Shown here piece by piece: positions 3,291 through 51,842 of a DNA stretch of 64,000 nt. Positions within the stretch are counted from its first letter, which is position 1. Each line of letters begins with the position of its first letter. The stretch comes from an uncultured delta proteobacterium (GTDB taxonomy: Bacteria; Desulfobacterota; Binatia; UBA9968). The position numbers were made by a program, and so were the translations under genes. The notes beneath the pieces were generated by a model that did no database searches, was not told the DNA's origin, and worked only from the letters and a program-made list of their open reading frames with translations. The DNA is taken from contig CAWJZV010000022.1 of NCBI GenBank assembly GCA_963847445.1, positions 11,205 to 75,204 of the forward strand. The letters are read 5' to 3'.

Positions 3291-3415
3291 ACTTGCGCGT
3301 TGAAAGGGCTCGTCCAGTTCACTAAAAACTTTGGGACTGAGAACATGAGGCAGCTGCCCGGCCATCGTCAAAAATAAACTTCAGCCGTTTGGGCCGATGT
3401 GGTATTCTTAGCGGC

Positions 3416-4048
3416 ATGAAACTAAGCATTGCATTGCTGTTTGCCGTAGCCGGGTTAGCTGGATGTTCCACGCCGAATATTAGCCGGAGCGGTACATTAC
3501 TCTCCGGACTGACCCAGTATCACGCTGATATGCAGTCCCTGAACGGCGTTTCACGCTGGCCGGAACGGCAGCGTGCCGTGGGCTCGTTGAAGACTATCAT
3601 CACTGGCACGGTGGGCGCGTCCCCGGAGTTTTACCGCCTGGTCGATCTCGATCTGCGCAAGCGCGAATTCACCGTGACGATACGCGATACCAATCTCCGT
3701 CCCGACCGGTTGCGCGAGATGCAGGACGAGCTGGTCGCCATGGATGAAGAAATCGCCGCGCTCAAGCCGGTGGTGAAGACGCAACTTTCGGCGGTGGCGA
3801 ATTACGAGCAAGGCGACCGCATCGAGAACGCCGCGTCTCTGGGGCTACTTGGTTTGGCCGTCGACAATTTTTCCGCCGCCGCAGCTTCCCGCGGCGCCCA
3901 GGCACCGTCAACCCGAGTCGGTCCATATCTCGTCACCGATTTGGGTGCGTTTTCGACCGTGCGCACGTCCGAGGGACAATCCTATCGCTGCGATGTATTC
4001 AGTGTGCCCGAAGAGGGCGGTGGGATTAGGTGTGAGCCGGTTAAATAA
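3416..4048 (+). CDS. Hypothetical lipoprotein
   Basis: MKLSIALLFAVAGLAGC lipobox; coiled-coil-like middle. Confidence 0.75.
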   Translation: MKLSIALLFAVAGLAGCSTPNISRSGTLLSGLTQYHADMQSLNGVSRWPERQRAVGSLKTIITGTVGASPEFYRLVDLDLRKREFTVTIRDTNLRPDRLREMQDELVAMDEEIAALKPVVKTQLSAVANYEQGDRIENAASLGLLGLAVDNFSAAAASRGAQAPSTRVGPYLVTDLGAFSTVRTSEGQSYRCDVFSVPEEGGGIRCEPVK

Positions 4049-4284
4049 TTAAGAATTGATTCAGTTGTCGGCGCATAATTCGCGATAAACATCCAGTGAT
4101 GGGATCTCTTGCACGAGTTTGGACTCTGACATTTCGCTGACTTTCCACCAGCCTTCCAGAAGCTGCGCCGTTTTCTCCTTGCCGTAAACCGGTTTCCCTG
4201 TTTACAAGAATTTGTTTCTGACCTTATCCGCGAGCGCAACCAACATCCCACGCCACGGCGGGAAAATAATGGTTGCGGTGGTCG

Positions 4285-5391
4285 TCATTTCAGCAGTTCA
4301 TTAGCCAGTTTGATCGCCTTGGGCCAGAGCTGGGTGAGCACTTCTTCGCTGGAGTTTTCCCGTTTTTGATTATCCTCGAAGCTCAAGAAATCTTTCGACG
4401 CCCGGGTGCCGTATTCCGCCAGCCATTTGGTGTCGACGTCGAGCCGGCGCGTCGCTTGGCCCATCGCCTTGCCATAGGTTTCTTGGCCTTCCTTGCTGAG
4501 CAGCCAATTGACGAAGACTTTGGTGGCGTTGGGGTGGCTTGAGTTTTTCACCACCGATAAGGCGCCGCTGCCGCTGCTGGTGTAGCTGCCTTCCTTGGCT
4601 TCGGGCAGCGGTTTGATCGGCAGGTTGGCTTTGATGAACGGCGCCAGCGTGTAATAGCTGAGGCCGATGGTGATTGCAAAGCGCCCCTTGGCGAGACTTT
4701 CGCCGAGCAGCCGCTGCTCGCGCGACAGCGTCAGTTCCTGCGCCGCTAGTTTGCGCAGAAATTCCTCGCCCTTGATTTTATAAAAGAACGCCCAGCTCGA
4801 GGTGCCGCCGCCGGCGGAGCGGGGATCGAGGATGCCGATCTTGCCTTTCCATTTCGGATTGAGCAGGTCGTCGAAGCCGCGGTATTCGTCCGCTTTCACC
4901 AGCTGCGTGTTGTGCCAAAAGTTCTCCGACTGGTAGGCCTGAAACGAGTAGAGATATTTCTTGGCGTTGTCCGCCCAGACATGGCCGCCGTACCAGCGCT
5001 TCGGATCTTTTACTTCCGGCAGGATCAGCAACGGTTCGATGGGATCGAGAATGCCGGCGTTCAGCAAATTCAACGGCGTCAACGAGCCGCTGATGAGTAG
5101 GTCGAAGTAGCGCACGCCGGCGGCATGTTCGGCGGCGATCTTGCTGGCGTTGGCCGGGCCGCGACCGGTGGCGAGCTCGATGTCGATGTCGGGATAGCGC
5201 TTGCTAAATGTCTCGTCCAACGCTTTGCGCAGTTCCGCGCTGGCCGGAATCCCGGCGACGACTTTGCCTTCTTTCTTGGCCGCCTCGACGGTCTTGTCCC
5301 AATCGGACTGGGCGCGCGCGGCGCGCGGCGCGCTCATTATAAACGTCAATATGCTGCACAGCCCTGCGATCGTTAGATAGGTTTTGAGCAT
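4285..5391 (-). CDS. Extracellular solute-binding protein (Fe/thiamine/polyamine class)
   Basis: AAKKEGKVV, LLNPKWKGKIG, HPNATKVFVNWLLSKEGQ motifs. Confidence 0.85.
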   Translation of the reverse strand: MLKTYLTIAGLCSILTFIMSAPRAARAQSDWDKTVEAAKKEGKVVAGIPASAELRKALDETFSKRYPDIDIELATGRGPANASKIAAEHAAGVRYFDLLISGSLTPLNLLNAGILDPIEPLLILPEVKDPKRWYGGHVWADNAKKYLYSFQAYQSENFWHNTQLVKADEYRGFDDLLNPKWKGKIGILDPRSAGGGTSSWAFFYKIKGEEFLRKLAAQELTLSREQRLLGESLAKGRFAITIGLSYYTLAPFIKANLPIKPLPEAKEGSYTSSGSGALSVVKNSSHPNATKVFVNWLLSKEGQETYGKAMGQATRRLDVDTKWLAEYGTRASKDFLSFEDNQKRENSSEEVLTQLWPKAIKLANELLK

Positions 5392-25680: not shown

Positions 25681-26955
25681 TTATCCCGCTTGCGCCGGCC
25701 TGGGCTCTTCATTGACGAACCAGAGCAGCAGCATGCCGGCGATGTAGGTGGCGGCGGCGATGTAGAAGGCCGGGGTGAAGCCGTAGTTTTGCATGACGTA
25801 GCCGATGATCAAGGTCCAGATCGGTCCTGAGATAAAACCGACGAAGTAGTAGATCGAGAAGGCCGCGTCGGTGAGCTCGGGCGTGGCGAAATCGCCGATC
25901 ATGGTTTGGGTCAGCGAGCCGCGCGCCTGGACGAAGGCGCCATAAAGAATCAGATTGACATAGAAGAGAATGCTCAGGGATGGATGTTGCACCAGCCATA
26001 CGGTGGTCACCGCCGATAGCAATAAAGTGAGCTGCGTGATGCCGCGCCGCTTGCCGGAGCGGTCGGAGAACCAGGCGATCAAGAGTGGGCCGACCAAGCC
26101 GGCGCCTTGCATCAGCGTTAATATCAAACCGCCGCCCGAGGCGGTGACGCCAAATTTGTTGCATGAAGAACGGCACCAGATAGGTCATGTTGACACCGGT
26201 GCCGCGTCCCGCCGCGCCGACCATCAGGACTAACGAGGTCAGGACGATGTTGCGGTTCTTCAAACACTGGAGATAGGCAGTCGAATCCAGCTTTGGCTTT
26301 CGCCTTGCCGCCGAGTTGTTCACTGGCGCCACCGGCGTGATCCTTGACGAGAAATAGCGTCAGCCCCATGACCAGACTGAAGGCGCCGAAGATCACGAAG
26401 GCGGTCTGCCAGGTAAAATATAGCAACGCCAACGACGCGGCCGCTGGGCCGATAAACGAGCCGAGGTTTCCCGCCGAGTGATGAAAGGTCAGCGCCCAGC
26501 CGCGCGACTGCGGATAATAGCGCGACAGGATGCTCGATCCCAACGGATGCTGCGGGCTAGAGCCGGCGTCGATGGCGACGCGGGCGGCGACCAGTTGGGG
26601 AAAACTGCTGACGAAGAACTGCGACATCGCGGTGATGCCGACGACGCAGTTGCCGATGGCGAGCATGGTGCTGCGTTTGAAAAAATTCGACAAGAAGCCG
26701 TAGATCACTTGCAGCCCCTGGCCGACGAAGCTCGACAACGCCGAGATGAATCCCAAGCCGACTAGATCCGAACCCCAACTCGGTCATCATCACCGGAAAT
26801 ATCACCGAGGTGATGCTGTATTGGAGATGATTCAAGACATGGCAGCCGCTGATGAGGCTGAGCGCCAGGCGCTTTTGTTGCAGCGTCACTTCGAGCGTCG
26901 GCGTTTCGCTGCCGGTGTTGGCGGCGGCATCGGCTGTGGTGGAGTGATCGGCCAT
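25681..26955 (-). CDS. MFS transporter (several frameshifts)
   Basis: Overlapping ORF pieces: CHVLNH, HPLGSSILSRYYPQSRG, WFSDRSG. Confidence 0.8.
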
Positions 26956-27052
26956 GGCTCTAAATTCCTTGGAGTAATGGAGTGTTGAATAATCTAGTAC
27001 TGCGTTTGGTTTATAGCGCCGCAGTGGTTGCTGTCAAACTCATGGTTTCGAG

Positions 27053-28642
27053 TTACGGGTTTCGAGTTTTGGGCCAGCGCGTAACTCGTAACTCTAAACC
27101 CGAGACGGTTTCCCCGCCCCGCGGCGTATTCGCCGGCGTGTAGTTGGCCATGAAAAAACTTATCGCGAGACCGAGCAGCATCAGCACGAAACCGGTCAAA
27201 AATGCATACCAGAGCGCGTCGCCGAGGCTGGCGATTAACTTAGGCAGCATATCGGCGGGAATCTGTGCGCGGGTGAGCGGCTCCAAAAGATTTTGCGGGT
27301 TGGCGAGTTTGGACCAGACAGTGGCGTCAACGGTGGGATTGGCGGCGCGCAATTGGCCGAGAGAGTTTTGCATTTGACTGAGCATCACCGTGCCCATGAC
27401 GCTGACGGCAAACGCCGCGCCGAAGGTGCGGAACAACATGACCGTCGATGTCGCCACGCCGATGCGCTGTGGGCGCGACCGAGCTTTGGGCCGCGACCAG
27501 GGTGGTGAGATTGGCCATGCCCATGCCGACGCCGATGGCGCCGGCGCTAAATGCGACGGCGACGATGCTGGCGCTAAACTGCGGCGCGACGAAAATGGCG
27601 TAGCCGATCGCGAGCAAACTCATGCCGGTAACCGCGGCGAAGCGATAGCCGAACCGGTTGATCCAGCGGCCGGCGAGCAAACTGCCGGCGGTCCAGCCCA
27701 TGCTCAGAATCAAAATAACCAGACCGGTGGCCGTGGCGGTCAGGCCGATCACGCCCTGGAGGAACAGCGGCATGTAGCTGATCGCGCCGAACACGCCCAT
27801 GGCCGAGATCGTGGCGACGGCGGCGGCCGAGTTATACAAGCCGATGTGAAACAGATCGACGGGCAAGATCGGCTCGGCGGCGCGCCGCTCGATGAAATAG
27901 AAAACGATTAAAATCACCAAACCGGCGCCGATGTAGCTCAAGGTTTCGGCGTTTAGCGGGTGGCGCGCGTGAGCGCTTTGCGCCAGAGCGTAGAATAATA
28001 ACAGCAAGCCAACGAGCAAGCGTGAATGCGCCGGCGAGATCGAGTCGAGCGGCCCGGCGCGTGCCTGCTTCTTCTTTCAAGCCGACGACGATCAGTGTCG
28101 TGGCGATGGCGATCAGCGGCAGGTTGATGAAGAAGATCCAGCGCCAACTCCAATTCTCGACAATGACGCCGCCGGCCAGGGGGCCGAGGATGGAGGCGAG
28201 GCCCCAGATGCCGCTGATGATGCCTTGCATCTTGGCGCGCTGCTCAGCGGGAAAGATCACCCCGATGACGATAAACGACAGCGCATAGATGGCGCCGCCG
28301 CCCAGCCCTTGGACGGCGCGAAAGGCGATCATCGCTTCCATGCTTTGGGCCAGCGCCGCATAGCGTCGAGCCGAGCAGAAAGATCGCGATGCCGATCAGC
28401 ATCAGCCGGCGCTTGCTGAACAGGTCGGCGAGCTTGCCGAAGATCGGCGTGGTCAGCGCCGAGGTCAGCATGTAAATCGTAAACACCCAGCTATAGAGTT
28501 CCAGGCCGCCCAATTTGGCGACGATGGTCGGCATCGACGTGCTGACGACGGTCGCGTCGATGGCGAAAAGAAAGATCACCATCATGACGCCGATGGCGGC
28601 GAGATTGCGCTTGGCGGCGGGCGCGCTTCGGTTGGCATTCAT
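27053..28642 (-). CDS. DHA2/EmrB-like MFS efflux transporter (several frameshifts)
   Basis: AIDATVVSTSMPTI, GKLADLF, RAVQGLGGG, WRWIFFINLP, ERRAAEPILP. Confidence 0.85.
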
Positions 28643-47565: not shown

Positions 47566-48100
47566 GGTGGTTTGGCCCGAGGCCGTAGGTAACTCTGTAG
47601 CATAAAATTAGGGCTGGGTACTAACTCTTAGCATTCCCAACGACTGCGTCCGATTGCCTGTGCGACAAAAACTTTCCGACGGCGCAAATGATGACGTCGA
47701 AACTGGGAAATTGCCTTAGGCGCCATCCTGGGTGAAGCGATCATGAATCGTTCCCCGGCACTATTCTGACAGGGCGAAGCCATGCGGCGACTTGATGAAG
47801 CGTCGGACCGTGGACCTGCCTGCCCGATTTAACGATCCGGTGGTGCCGTTGCCTATGCGGAAAATTTCGTCAAAAAAATTCGCATAAATTTTACTCTGGC
47901 TGTCAGCGCAACGCCGCCGTGCTCACAGTGAAGGCCGTGGATTTATGCCCCAACAGGCCAGCTCTCAAATGAGATCGTTGCAGAGGGGACACGTTTGCCC
48001 GTGAAACGCGTGTGGAAATTCTGCTCCATTTGATTCCCGCAATAGACAACTCGGACCCGATTGCGACCTGAAATCCCATCGTTCTTGCCCGGAATGCCGC

Positions 48101-48116
48101 TGGCATCATTGCTGCT
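48101..48116 (+). promoter_or_regulatory. Putative sigma54 (-24/-12) promoter
   Basis: TGGCATCATTGCTGCT has GG-N10-GC spacing; predicted TSS (~48127) coincides with the riboswitch 5' end. Confidence 0.6.
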
Positions 48117-48127
48117 CTAACACCAAT

Positions 48128-48204
48128 CGAAGTTGACGCTGTGATCTGAAGTCCCCGACGTGGTCACCATGGGGCTCAGGGAGCGAGTGGTGAAACCGGC
48201 AACT
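48128..48204 (+). ncRNA. c-di-GMP-II-class riboswitch aptamer (copy 1)
   Basis: P1 AGTTG/CAACT, P2 CGC/GCG, K-turn TGTGA...GGAG, P3 CCCC/GGGG, pseudoknot GGTCAC/GTGA-AA-CC. Confidence 0.85.
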
Positions 48205-48224
48205 CAAGGTTGCCGGTTTTTTTT
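48193..48224 (+). terminator. Riboswitch-controlled intrinsic terminator
   Basis: AAACCGGCAAC-TCAAG-GTTGCCGGTTT plus T-tract; overlaps the aptamer 3' strand. Confidence 0.85.
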
Positions 48225-48262
48225 GTTCGGTTTCGGAAATTGTCGAAGGGAGAGTCGAAACG

Positions 48263-48718
48263 ATGTTGCACCACTTGAAGGAAAACAAAGGCCAGAGCGC
48301 AGTGGAGTTCACCTTAGGATTTTTACTTCTCTATACCGTTATCATGGCTGTCGTCGAGTTCTCGCACATGTTTTATACCAAGACCACTCTACAGCACGCG
48401 ATCGCCGAGGCCGGCCGCTACATGATCACCGGCCAAGGGATCGACCATACGGGAACCAACCCCAACGCTCGTCTGCAAAAGGTCCAAGACAAATTCTGCA
48501 ATAATCTGATCGCTACGGGTCTTTCCTGCGCAAATGTTTCCTCCCATCTTACGCTGACCTGTGTCGGTGGTTGCGCGCAGCCGGCCGGCGGTCCAGGTCA
48601 GACCGTAACTCTCACCGCGACGTATTCGAGAGGGTGGTTTACCGGGATGTTCAATCATCTACTGCCCACCATAACTCTTGTCGCCAACACGACCTGGAAA
48701 AACGAAGTCTACATGTAA
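48263..48718 (+). CDS. TadE-like minor pilin
   Basis: Prepilin motif KGQSAVEF, hydrophobic helix, EAGRY. Confidence 0.9.
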   Translation: MLHHLKENKGQSAVEFTLGFLLLYTVIMAVVEFSHMFYTKTTLQHAIAEAGRYMITGQGIDHTGTNPNARLQKVQDKFCNNLIATGLSCANVSSHLTLTCVGGCAQPAGGPGQTVTLTATYSRGWFTGMFNHLLPTITLVANTTWKNEVYM

Positions 48719-48736
48719 CCGACCCAGGAGATCATT

Positions 48737-49399
48737 ATGAGATTCTTACGCAAATACTTGAGTTCAAGAAAAGGTCAAAGCCTGGTCGAGATGACATTTG
48801 GCATCCCGATGTTGATAGGTCTGGGTTTCGGGGTCATCGAGATCGGCAACATGATTAACTCTTATCTGGTGTTAACCCATTTGACCCGTGAAGCCACTAA
48901 CATTGTCTCTCGTCAGCCCGGAGCGAAGGGCTCGACGCAATGGGCGACGAGCGTCAACGCGGATTTGAATGCGGTTATCAGCAAGGCAAGCCCAGTCATT
49001 AACCCAACCGCCAGCGGAGCAAGAGGGCCGAATCAGTATAAGATTTACTATTCCCAGGTCGAGTGGAATCCCACCCCAGGTGTTTGCGGCGGTGATCCCA
49101 TAGCCAATGGCCAGCCGGATAACTACCGGATTCGCCGCAGCAACACGGGTTGGGCCGGCAATGTCACCTGGGAATATGGTTCCCTGAGCCATAATAGCAA
49201 TTTGGGTAATGATGGAGATTGCGCCTACCTGCTTTTGCCTGAGGTCAAAAATCTATCCACACAGGGACTCGTGCTTCATGTCGTTGAAGTTTTCTTTGAT
49301 TACGCCCCGAGTAAGTTAACGCCGGTGGAAGCTTTCATCGGTGCTCTCGCACCCGGAATTTTTTATCGCAGAACGGTTTTCATGGATGTTGTCGGCTAA
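48737..49399 (+). CDS. TadE/TadF-like minor pilin
   Basis: KGQSLVEM, TREAT. Confidence 0.85.
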   Translation: MRFLRKYLSSRKGQSLVEMTFGIPMLIGLGFGVIEIGNMINSYLVLTHLTREATNIVSRQPGAKGSTQWATSVNADLNAVISKASPVINPTASGARGPNQYKIYYSQVEWNPTPGVCGGDPIANGQPDNYRIRRSNTGWAGNVTWEYGSLSHNSNLGNDGDCAYLLLPEVKNLSTQGLVLHVVEVFFDYAPSKLTPVEAFIGALAPGIFYRRTVFMDVVG

Positions 49400-49443
49400 C
49401 CTGGCAGGTCGTGATGTCACGGAGATATGACGAGGAACAAATT

Positions 49444-50664
49444 ATGAAACAGAAAAATGAAAAGGGCCAAGCGCTGGTATTTATCTTGTTATTGTTCGCC
49501 ATACTGCTGTTTATGGTTGGTTTGGCCAGCGACGGCGGGCGGGCGTACTTGGTTAGAGCCTCGATGGCACGAGTCGTCGATGCCGCGGCGATCGCAGCGG
49601 CTGCAAAGATCAATAGCGGCGGACTAACCGCGGCTCAAACCGCTGCCTGCGACTCGGCGCGGATGAACGGTGTCACTAACTGCGCGATTCTTGATGTCAC
49701 CCAGGTGACTACCAACGACGCCGCGGGCAATCCCAAAAGCGGCGTCAAAGTCACGGCCAACGTTGCGACGCCGACTATTTTCGTCGCCGCTGGGAAACTG
49801 CTCGGTTGCACCACTTGCAGTGTAATCAATGTCTCGGTTAGCGCAGTGGCGGCGGGGGGCGGGACTATCGATCTGGCCATGAACCTGGACAATACTGGTT
49901 CCATGTCGGGCTCCAAAATAGCCAATGCTAAGATTGGGGCGAACGCTTTAGTCACGGCATTGATGCCCAGCGGAACTTCATCCACCGCGCTGGTCAGCAT
50001 GGTGCCTTTTCAGGGATGCTACAGAAGCAATACCACCGGCGGCTGCGTGGACATGGACGAGTATCCAACTAGCGGCGGCATGACTGTCTCGCTGACGAGT
50101 GATGCCAGCCGGTTACATAGCGGCATCAACGCTCTTAGCGCGCCAGGCGGTTCCGGAACCAACGTTTGCACTGGGTTAAAAAAAGCGCGGGAGAGATTGT
50201 TCCAGTCTGGGGTCGCGCGGCCTAATAGCCTTAGATATCTAATAATACTCACGGATGCCGAGAATAATTTTATGACAGGTCTCCCAACTGGCAGCGTAGA
50301 TTCGGCATGTGTACCCTCTCCTGCAACGCAAACCAATGCAGCTAACCTAAACCTTGGGGTCAAAACCAACGCGCTAGCCACGCAAATTAAAGATCCTACC
50401 TCCACTGCCGACGGACAAACAGTTGGGCAAATAGTGAAAATTTTCGTAATTATGTACGGTCCCAACGCAACTGGAACCGTTCCGGCCAATTGTAATGTTA
50501 CTGGGTTAAGTAGTGGCACGGTGACAAGCCAAAGTTATACAAAGAACCTCGCGCGCTGCATCGCGTCCTCATCCGGCGATGTTTACTTGGCGCCCAATGA
50601 CACGGATATCAGCGCTGCCTTTCAGCAAATCATCAACCGATTACCGGTGGTCTTGGTTAACTAA
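49444..50664 (+). CDS. TadG-like protein with vWA domain
   Basis: KGQALVF, DAAAIAAA, MIDAS-like LDNTGSM, GTN, ILTD. Confidence 0.9.
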   Translation: MKQKNEKGQALVFILLLFAILLFMVGLASDGGRAYLVRASMARVVDAAAIAAAAKINSGGLTAAQTAACDSARMNGVTNCAILDVTQVTTNDAAGNPKSGVKVTANVATPTIFVAAGKLLGCTTCSVINVSVSAVAAGGGTIDLAMNLDNTGSMSGSKIANAKIGANALVTALMPSGTSSTALVSMVPFQGCYRSNTTGGCVDMDEYPTSGGMTVSLTSDASRLHSGINALSAPGGSGTNVCTGLKKARERLFQSGVARPNSLRYLIILTDAENNFMTGLPTGSVDSACVPSPATQTNAANLNLGVKTNALATQIKDPTSTADGQTVGQIVKIFVIMYGPNATGTVPANCNVTGLSSGTVTSQSYTKNLARCIASSSGDVYLAPNDTDISAAFQQIINRLPVVLVN

Positions 50665-50686
50665 GGATTACTGTAATATCCGATGT

Positions 50687-50760
50687 AGTTGACGCTGTGA
50701 TCTGAAATCCCCGACGTGGTCACCAAGGGGTTCAGGGAGCGAGTGGTGAAACCGGCAACT
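50687..50760 (+). ncRNA. c-di-GMP-II-class riboswitch aptamer (copy 2)
   Basis: Near-identical to copy 1, with compensatory G-C to A-T change in P3. Confidence 0.85.
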
Positions 50761-50781
50761 CAAAGTTGCCGGTTTTTTTTT
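50749..50781 (+). terminator. Riboswitch-controlled intrinsic terminator
   Basis: AAACCGGCAACT-CAA-AGTTGCCGGTTT plus T-tract. Confidence 0.85.
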
Positions 50782-50817
50782 GACAGACCGGCATGACAAC
50801 CGAAAGGAGATTTTGTC

Positions 50818-51366
50818 ATGATGACCGGTCGTATCAGCAATTCAAAAGGTCGAGCGCTGGTTTTGTTGGCAGTGGCAGTTCCGATGATGCTCCTGTTGGC
50901 ACTCGGCGCCATGGAAGTCTCGCGCGCCATCAGCGTCAACAGCACTCTGGTACAGTTCACCCGTGAAGCGGGGAACTTGACTTCCGGTGGCACCGAGGTG
51001 AACCGCTCTCTGAAAGCGGCTATCGCCGCCACGTCATCGACTTTGCACGACAACAATAAGCAGCAGTGGAAGGTGATTTACTCCCAGCTCCGCAAACAAT
51101 CAGGCGACGCCTGTTCGGCGAAAACCTGTTTGTATCAGGTCGAAAGCCAAGTCGAGCTGGGGGATCTCAAAGGACAAAGCCATATCGGCGCGGCAAGAAA
51201 GCCGGTGATCATCGCCGGCATGGACGAGATCGAGCCCAACCGGATTTTTCACTCAATCGAAGTTTTTTACGATTATCGTCCGGAGTTTTTCAGCCTGCTT
51301 AGTAAGCTGATCGATCTAAAGTTCTACGAAAAAACCGTTTACACCGATCTCGCTGCGCTTCGCTGA
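50818..51366 (+). CDS. TadE-like minor pilin, paralog of 48737-49399
   Basis: KGRALVLL, TREAGN, WKVIYSQ, IEVFYDY; AAGGAG RBS. Confidence 0.8.
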   Translation: MMTGRISNSKGRALVLLAVAVPMMLLLALGAMEVSRAISVNSTLVQFTREAGNLTSGGTEVNRSLKAAIAATSSTLHDNNKQQWKVIYSQLRKQSGDACSAKTCLYQVESQVELGDLKGQSHIGAARKPVIIAGMDEIEPNRIFHSIEVFYDYRPEFFSLLSKLIDLKFYEKTVYTDLAALR

Positions 51367-51428
51367 CAAGGAGCGGGGGATGTCAGATGTCCTCACAGCG
51401 CTCTTATTGGCATTAGAAAGTTTCAATG

Positions 51429-51463
51429 AAAAAGGGAGTCGGATTATTAATCCGACTCCCTTT
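51429..51463. terminator. Bidirectional terminator
   Basis: AAAAAGGGAGTCGGATT-ATT-AATCCGACTCCCTTT between convergent genes. Confidence 0.85.
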
Positions 51464-51497
51464 GACTTCCGCGTAGCGACCTGGCTAACGATCGCGC

Positions 51498-51842
51498 CTA
51501 ATATTCAGTCTGGCGCGGCCGCTGGATCTGTTGGTTATTGCGATTGATCGTCTGCTGGTTCTGTTGAATCTGCTGCTGGTTCGCCTCGTACTGTTGCTGT
51601 TGTTCTTGCCCCTGCATGCGATCGCCGATCAAAGCACCGGCGCCCAAACCGACGGCACCGCCGATGGCCGCGCCGGTACCGGGCCGGCCCACCGCAGCGC
51701 CAATTAACCCGCCCGCCGCGGCGCCACCCAGCGCGCCGATACCCGCGCCTTTTTCACGAGTCGTCAGTGAACCGCCGGAACAACCGGCGAAGATCATCCC
51801 AGCCACTCCAAGCGCCATCCATCGTTGGGTCATCACTTTCAT
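51498..51842 (-). CDS. Glycine-zipper lipoprotein with Q/N-rich tail
   Basis: FAGC lipobox, GAGIGALGGAAAGGLIG. Confidence 0.85.
   Translation of the reverse strand: MKVMTQRWMALGVAGMIFAGCSGGSLTTREKGAGIGALGGAAAGGLIGAAVGRPGTGAAIGGAVGLGAGALIGDRMQGQEQQQQYEANQQQIQQNQQTINRNNQQIQRPRQTEY

Follow-up and report, generated by a model that had tools for sequence, protein, structure and literature searches.

Two predicted c-di-GMP-II riboswitches in series in an accessory Tad minor-pilin cassette of an uncultured Binatia bacterium

We analyzed a 64,000-nt stretch of DNA (the window) from an uncultured bacterium of the Binatia, whose genome assembly comprises 7.19 Mb in 48 contigs and is 91.8% complete. 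The window carries a cassette of Tad pilus genes, tadE1-tadE2-tadG-tadE3, in which one class II cyclic di-GMP (c-di-GMP-II) riboswitch precedes tadE1 and a second, nearly identical copy stands between tadG and tadE3. With moderate confidence, we read this arrangement as one operon gated in series by two c-di-GMP ON switches, with tadE3 reached by read-through. The two aptamers are located as follows.

48125-48210 (+): c-di-GMP-II aptamer, copy 1; RF01786, 53.9 bits, E 4e-9; P1 pairs 48131-48135 with 48200-48204
50681-50765 (+): c-di-GMP-II aptamer, copy 2; RF03169 (GAG variant), 54.5 bits; RF01786, 53.4 bits under looser settings; P1 pairs 50687-50691 with 50756-50760

A first-pass annotation, made from the letters alone, had recognized both aptamers, and the Rfam covariance models for c-di-GMP-II and its variant bore this out. 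Copy 2 falls 0.1 bit below the gathering score of RF01786 (53.5 bits) and well above that of the clan member RF03169 (54.5 versus 40 bits). No class II aptamer beyond these two was found by Rfam in the whole 7.19-Mb genome. A gap-free alignment of the two copies extends from some 30 nt upstream of P1 as far as the T-tract, with differences at 5 of 95 core columns, and the compensatory pair change that had been noticed between them is present (G48151:C48175 versus A50707:T50731 in the Rfam alignment register). A distance of 2,470 nt, with three open reading frames (ORFs), separates copy 1 from copy 2. The tadG stop codon ends at 50664; the Rfam match for copy 2 begins 16 nt later and its P1 22 nt later, which agrees with the spacing of about 22 nt first given. 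A ribosome terminating at a stop codon 22 nt before P1 is estimated not to cover the aptamer.

We then compared these aptamers with those of related genomes. A class II match was present in 20 of 60 relatives, all in the window's family (20 of 36; leaving out genome G005, 19 of 59 and 19 of 35), and 5 genomes in a sample of 150 others from the phylum had weak, sub-threshold matches. Of 29 class II matches in the relatives, 27 were fetched, those of G005 and G033:C491 (which has no locus) being the exceptions. Our alignment of 28 aptamers contains the 2 from the window and 26 of these 27, a decayed copy 1 from relative G022 being excluded. Scored against the class II structure, the 28 had 93.6% of their cells paired and 7 pairs changed on both sides; none of 500 shuffles reached the aptamer values, and slid controls gave 31 to 52% pairing. 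P1, P2, and P3 are backed by covariation, and the pseudoknot is invariant among the 28 and hence uninformative.

The assignment of copy 2 to RF03169 raised the question of which ligand these aptamers bind. The residue numbers of PDB 3Q3Z, which we mapped onto the Rfam consensus, identify a floor A, a ceiling A, an A reading one guanine, an intercalating A, and a G reading the other guanine (PMC13715770). The pocket positions matching A13, A61, A69, A70, and G73 are all kept, with GA...GCGAGUGGUGAAACCG in the window. In each of the 28 lineage aptamers, GGUGAAACCG or GGUGAACCCG stands where the consensus is GUGCAACCG, so that the lineage has A for the consensus C just 5' of two pocket adenines. 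This change is shared with the GAG model, which is on a par with the class II model in score, and it could mean that the aptamers sense another cyclic dinucleotide. We regard this as very unlikely. The changed base sits in the pseudoknot and is matched by a loop U (UCACC with GGUGA in 28 of 28 aptamers), and it can be read as a compensated helix change. Moreover, only this first change of the variant is common to both: the RF03169 model has G at the guanine-reading adenine (the A69 position), whereas the window keeps A. The defining GAG in place of CAA before CCG is absent, both copies and all 28 aptamers reading GAA or GAAC. The genes under control, for adhesion and pili, are also of the kind controlled by c-di-GMP elsewhere. 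Because the G of the GAG model at the guanine-reading adenine is missing in the window, we file both copies as class II, with c-di-GMP as the predicted ligand. The GAG variant itself was probably described by Weinberg in 2017.

Each aptamer overlaps an intrinsic terminator, for which we give folding energies and z scores of the hairpin against shuffles.

48192-48224 (+): intrinsic terminator of copy 1 (hairpin 48192-48220); 13 pairs, 8 T, -19.1 kcal/mol, z = -6.1
50748-50781 (+): intrinsic terminator of copy 2 (hairpin 50748-50776); 13 pairs, 9 T, -19.1 kcal/mol, z = -5.2

The 5' arms of both terminators hold the P1 3' strand CAACT (48200-48204 and 50756-50760) together with the AACCG pocket segment and AACCGG junction. 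Because aptamer and terminator share the P1 3' strand and the junction, the two folds are mutually exclusive and the ligand should favor read-through. Thus, the structure predicts that both riboswitches are ON switches. The same overlap had led the first-pass annotation to this direction, and the shared strand was found where expected in both copies. The copy 2 terminator would then be a conditional end for the tadE1-tadE2-tadG transcript.

The genes that these switches would control are the following.

48263-48718 (+): tadE1, minor pilin; PF07811, E 4.9e-12; leader ...NKG/QSAVEF, Glu at +5
48737-49399 (+): tadE2, minor pilin; PF07811, E 2.6e-7; leader ...RKG/QSLVEM, Glu at +5
49444-50664 (+): tadG, large minor pilin with a domain of the von Willebrand factor A (vWA) type; likely ATG start, alternative GTG at 49411; PF13400, PF13519, PF00092; leader ...EKG/QALVF, Phe at +5
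50818-51366 (+): tadE3, TadE-like; PF07811, E 2.3e-5; leader ...SKG/RALVL, Leu at +5

TadE1 and TadE2 each combine a TadE domain with a prepilin-peptidase site of the form G/xxxxE, as expected of minor pilins. TadG has the Tad N-terminal domain and a vWA domain with motifs like those of a metal ion-dependent adhesion site (MIDAS): DNTGS at residue 149, GTN at 238, and LTDA at 269. Across the four such cassettes of this genome, Phe is at +5 in every TadG and Glu at +5 in every readable TadE leader except that of TadE3.

We next looked at how transcription of the cassette might begin. One promoter-like element lies just upstream of copy 1.

48101-48115 (+): sigma-54-type promoter, TGGCATCATTGCTGC; -24 TGGCAT and -12 CTGC (48112-48115), GG-N10-GC

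We take the -24/-12 pattern to be the sigma-54 consensus. TGGYAYN6TGC has a single match on both strands of the 64-kb window, at 48101-48115, and this motif ends 17 nt upstream of the TTGA of the aptamer 1 core. Transcription would start near 48127, 12 nt past the -12 C and about 4 nt before P1. A scan with sigma-70 patterns returned nothing on the plus strand before either aptamer. The genome has rpoN and 29 Sigma54_activat matches. A palindrome, CGCAAT..ATTGCG at about 48038-48065, was considered as an activator site and dropped, as it is not conserved in G022.

The pairing of this promoter type with a class II riboswitch recurs throughout the lineage. A TGGCAY-N5-NTGC recurs in the 90-nt stretches upstream of the lineage aptamers. 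Counted with the pattern [TC]GG[CT]A[CT]N7GC within 100 nt upstream of the riboswitch, the motif was present at 24 of 26 first- or single-copy riboswitches, 21 of these at 11 to 41 nt from the core; the two misses are loci L056 and L057. Its background in the genome is 2.5e-4 per base, from which about 0.7 matches would be expected over 26 riboswitches. The genes downstream of these promoter-riboswitch pairs are of at least five different kinds. Elsewhere in the genus, they include flp genes and others that encode either large proteins or small ones with signal-peptide-like N termini. At three loci of this kind (L038 in G028, L048 in G018, and L058 in G011), the motif and a class II riboswitch with its terminator stand directly before an flp gene with the leader ...DGQGLTEY or ...DGQGLVEY, unlike the two flp genes of the window genome, which have no riboswitch. 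L056, from another genus, has a class II riboswitch before a tadG-tadE-tadE set.

Copy 2 is different. The motif was upstream of 0 of 3 second copies within 100 nt, and by eye it is also missing at the copy 2 of a metagenome contig (L062). The absence of a clear promoter at copy 2, pointed out from the letters, was upheld by these counts and by the edge of the homology between the copies, which falls between the two boxes. This homology has its 5' limit at TTGCTnCTCTAAC, the -12 box, leaving out the -24 box, and extends past the terminator as far as the Shine-Dalgarno region. The alignment identifies copy 2 as a duplicate of copy 1 that starts at the -12 box. Because the duplication began there, copy 2 would be without a sigma-54 promoter of its own, and in the window even the GC of the -12 box has been lost.

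Relatives illustrate what copy 2 may have replaced. In G014, copy 1 and tadE1-tadE2-tadG are present, copy 2 and tadE3 are not, and a plain terminator (a GC-rich hairpin and a T-run) comes after tadG. G003 has the cassette with both switches and tadE3, and G022 has it with both switches up to the contig end. L062 reads tadG-TAA-copy 2-tadE3 with 90% protein identity. In four runs, from four studies, contigs that break at the repeat bridge tadG into copy 2, and in two of these runs (X1 and X9) contigs bridge copy 2 into tadE3. An 86-nt joint in run X3 was not trusted, one side having only 24 letters. Taken together, the lack of a -24/-12 motif at copy 2, a duplication that begins at the -12 box, and the plain terminator in G014 favor read-through and serial gating.

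The mechanism that we propose is as follows. Transcription would start at the activator-dependent sigma-54-type promoter at 48101-48115, at about 48127 and just before riboswitch 1. In the absence of c-di-GMP, the terminator at 48192-48224 would form and the transcript would end. With c-di-GMP bound, the aptamer would keep the P1 3' strand and AACCG, so that the terminator would be blocked and tadE1, tadE2, and tadG transcribed. Copy 2 stands where a close relative has the plain operon terminator after tadG, and a polymerase leaving tadG would meet there a second c-di-GMP-dependent terminator before tadE3. If f is the fraction of read-through at each switch, the first three genes would be expressed as about f and tadE3 as about f squared. 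Going further, two identical ON switches might convert the c-di-GMP level into a subunit ratio: a vWA-tipped adhesive pilus would be made first, and TadE3 would be added only at a high level and would alter tip capping, anchoring, or assembly. This extension is speculative, and we put it forward only tentatively.

Several points weigh against serial gating. Start sites, termination, and read-through are all predictions from sequence, as are the ligand, the ON direction, and any effect on a pilus; a search for RNA runs that cover 47900-51500 found none. The score of copy 2 is 0.1 bit short of RF01786 gathering. The relatives are kin, so 24 of 26 overstates the independence of the promoter motif. 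Upstream of copy 2 in G003, G022, and L062 there is a GG-N11-GC, one base off the sigma-54 spacing, with its GG supplied by the tadG coding sequence. Before the window's copy 2 there is also a weak sigma-70-like pair, TTGGTT and TAATAT (50674-50679) separated by 15 nt, and the promoter rules of this lineage may differ from the patterns that we used. TadE3 belongs to a family without a conserved Gly at -1, so its place in the pilus is uncertain. Finally, tadG is frameshifted in G003 (at least three shifts) and G022 (one shift), and the G022 copy 1 (L050, oriented 2001-2086; 32 bits) lacks the P1 5' strand and has an interrupted T-tract. These frameshifts and the degenerate copy 1 may reflect decay of the cassette in some members or indel errors in assembly. 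In G022, copy 2 is intact beside the decayed copy 1, and tadE1 is truncated. In G003, the region of tadG before the shared C terminus (L039, oriented 3314-4530) differs from the window TadG, which suggests either a second distal-domain variant, common to G022 and L062, or again indel errors.

The weak pair leads to a different account, in which copy 2 and tadE3 have their own non-sigma-54 promoter in the last tadG codons. There would then be two independent c-di-GMP-gated units, tadE3 would need a single binding event, and the copy 2 terminator would merely double as the end of the upstream operon. In addition to the -10-like TAATAT, this account draws on the completeness of the copy 2 riboswitch, which has a leader and a Shine-Dalgarno sequence to itself. 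However, the pair fits at only 7 of 12 positions and was not listed by the pattern scan. The hexamer is not conserved (TAACAT in G003 and TAAGAT in G022); its ancestor lies in copy 1, in the stretch that separates -12 from +1, and is not accompanied there by a -35 element. TTGGTT is coding sequence that is also found in G014, a relative without copy 2, and the lineage's other riboswitches carry the -24/-12 motif in 24 of 26 cases. We therefore consider an independent promoter for copy 2 rather unlikely.

The signs of decay could instead mean that a local duplication left copy 2 and tadE3 behind and that these, now decaying, play no part in regulation. This would fit the degenerate copy 1 in G022, the frameshifted tadG in G003 and G022, and the loss of the module in G014. 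However, the copy 2 aptamer, pseudoknot, terminator, and T-tract are kept in all 4 instances seen, and copy 2 differs from copy 1 at only 4 to 8 of 95 positions, the compensatory pair included. TadE3 has 17 relatives at 66 to 93% identity, with 46 invariant columns that include two cysteines, which indicates that TadE3 is under constraint. A role as a mere leftover thus seems to us highly improbable.

TadE3 had been described as a paralog of TadE2 that lacks the Glu at +5 and as the last pilin of the cassette. The first part stands: TadE3 aligns with TadE2 over its full length (24% identity, E 2e-15), does not match TadE1, and has Leu at +5. Its status as a pilin is weakened. TadE3 lacks the G/xxxxE prepilin-peptidase site of TadE1 and TadE2; Glu is at +5 in 0 of the 17 relatives, and roughly half of them have another residue for the Gly at -1 (FASRK). 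Instead of a filament pilin, TadE3 may be a TadE-like protein that stays unprocessed and anchored in the membrane. Within its own genome, the nearest TadE is the second one of the cassette on contig C30 (34% identity). An AlphaFold2 model built from 18 sequences was too poor for a fold search (mean predicted local distance difference test score 55.1, predicted template modeling score 0.36); at this low confidence, the secondary structure that it shows, strands after a long N-terminal helix, is no more than suggestive. An 8-bp inverted repeat, CATGACAA..TTGTCATG at window 50793-50825, flanks the tadE3 Shine-Dalgarno sequence and takes in the start codon. It is kept in G003 with one wobble, and may add translational control.

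The first-pass annotation had called the cassette a satellite with no flp, secretin, or ATPase genes in the window. This held: we found none of these, and no further tad gene, among the 63 other window ORFs of at least 90 amino acids, and the Flp_Fap matches of the genome are only on contigs other than the window's. The core locus is on contig C48, and the Tad genes outside the window are distributed as follows.

Contig C48 end, 289000-305672 (L004): core tad locus; secretin (cut by the contig end), receiver-ParA/CpaE-like, CpaF-type ATPase, two T2SSF, DUF192, two TadE, one TadG-like
Contig C30: tip set tadE-tadE-tadG, with VWA
Contig C15: tip set tadE-tadE-tadG
C30 (L006 10130-10490) and C46 (L007 9304-9838): orphan flp genes, near-identical; leader G/QGLVEY

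Thus, the genome has four tadE-tadE-tadG sets: the window cassette on C22, those on C30 and C15, and that of the C48 core. Within the three TadE-bearing regions examined outside the window, one set of CpaF, TadB, TadC, and secretin was found. A TadG scan of a collection of genome contigs gave one partial locus that ends at a contig end and is uninformative. RcpC (PF16976) was not found in the genome; with an assembly 91.8% complete and a core locus that breaks off at a contig end, this is not evidence of absence. The window cassette is best explained as an operon of accessory ("tip") minor pilins that would serve a Tad pilus machine encoded on another contig. At the gathering score, no riboswitch was found at the genome's other Tad loci. 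On C30, the -24/-12 motif also precedes both the flp gene and the tip cassette. The genome has four GGDEF matches.

Other features of the window and the genome were noted along the way. Downstream of tadE3, one more hairpin may end transcription from both sides.

51434-51460 (strand not assigned): 11-bp hairpin, likely a shared terminator between tadE3 and the converging glycine-zipper gene, with a T-run on the minus strand only

It was read by eye from the sequence and is absent from the terminator list of the pattern scan. The neighbors of the cassette in the window are genes for solute-binding proteins, amidohydrolases, and similar proteins. NMT1/THI5-like solute-binding genes are unusually dense (at least 12 of the 63 ORFs, window 2064-61584), among amidohydrolase, Rieske, and UbiD-type genes. 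A major facilitator superfamily transporter is spread over four ORFs at window 25681-28642 (-), and elsewhere in the genome a gene for DNA polymerase III alpha is in pieces (L003 4925-7404); each is either a pseudogene or the product of assembly indel errors. Both orphan flp genes have a tRNA gene no more than a few hundred bases away, and GGGCAC-N5-CTGCT precedes the start codon of the C30 flp gene by 82 nt. About 8 kb from the C30 tip cassette there are two TIR-domain genes (L003 17702-19982), of which one carries a fused FGE-sulfatase domain and the other belongs to the CAP12/Pycsar type of effector; this region is a possible defense island.

The cassette would join three layers of control that tend to be examined separately: sigma-54 initiation, antitermination by a second messenger, and a choice among alternative Tad tip sets. 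This suggests how a soil or biofilter bacterium could pick one adhesive tip of four at high c-di-GMP. If our reading is true, a riboswitch inside an operon that sets stoichiometry, combined with enhancer-dependent initiation, is a design not described for pili. The pairing of a -24/-12 promoter with a class II riboswitch across the lineage can be tested directly with reporters. Close relatives offer a natural comparison, in which tadG is followed at the same site either by a plain terminator or by one predicted to depend on c-di-GMP, with an extra gene behind it. In the literature that we searched, we came across no description of a riboswitch ahead of Tad genes, of a same-class copy that replaces the internal terminator of an operon, or of a -24/-12 coupling across a lineage. 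Riboswitch surveys target 5' untranslated regions (UTRs), and switches inside operons are under-counted.

The proposal that this is an undescribed system was too strong. Both adjacent tandem c-di-GMP-II riboswitches (PMC9481103) and multiple Tad tip sets for one machine (PMC12075869) have been published. The nearest single-switch relative that we know from the literature is in Clostridioides difficile, where the class II switches are uniformly ON and control pilin and adhesin genes, and where Cdi-2-4 precedes pilA1 (PMC6200980). Experiments on these switches, the pilA1 one among them, have demonstrated the same logic, in which ligand binding to the aptamer prevents termination. Like the window copies, Cdi-2-4 joins a class II aptamer to a terminator platform, with c-di-GMP read-through into pilin genes. 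Unlike them, it is one switch at the 5' end, before a type IVa major pilin, in a Firmicute. In the window the genes are Tad minor pilins of an uncultured Gram-negative lineage, the promoter is of the sigma-54 type, and a second copy stands inside the operon.

The tandem survey lists 59 doublets and 9 triplets of adjacent c-di-GMP-II riboswitches, mostly before a surface-anchor gene in Paraclostridium (PMC9481103). As in those tandems, two complete switches of the same class, each with a terminator, act in series in our proposal, and a steeper, pseudo-cooperative response would be expected. Those tandems stand side by side in one 5' UTR and serve one gene, whereas 2.47 kb and three genes separate the window copies and the outputs would be about f and f squared. 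That survey counted aptamers within 300 nt in one 5' UTR as tandem; the window copies, 2,470 nt apart, lie outside this definition. Pairs more than 300 nt apart were discarded, so switches inside operons would be under-counted there. The same source gives D. acetoxidans seven riboswitches in three clusters split by ORFs, of mixed classes.

The closest parallel for the tip sets is the Tad-like Kil pilus of Myxococcus xanthus, as described in PMC12075869. Its interchangeable KilLMN tip complexes come from four TadE/TadF/TadG-like sets that are paralogous; the core cluster holds one of these and the other three lie outside it, and the large TadG-like subunit has a variable distal domain. The window genome likewise has genes for one machine and four putative tip sets, one in the core and three elsewhere. 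Unlike the KilLMN sets, for which no riboswitch control is described (PMC12075869), the window cassette carries two predicted c-di-GMP switches and a fourth, TadE-like gene.

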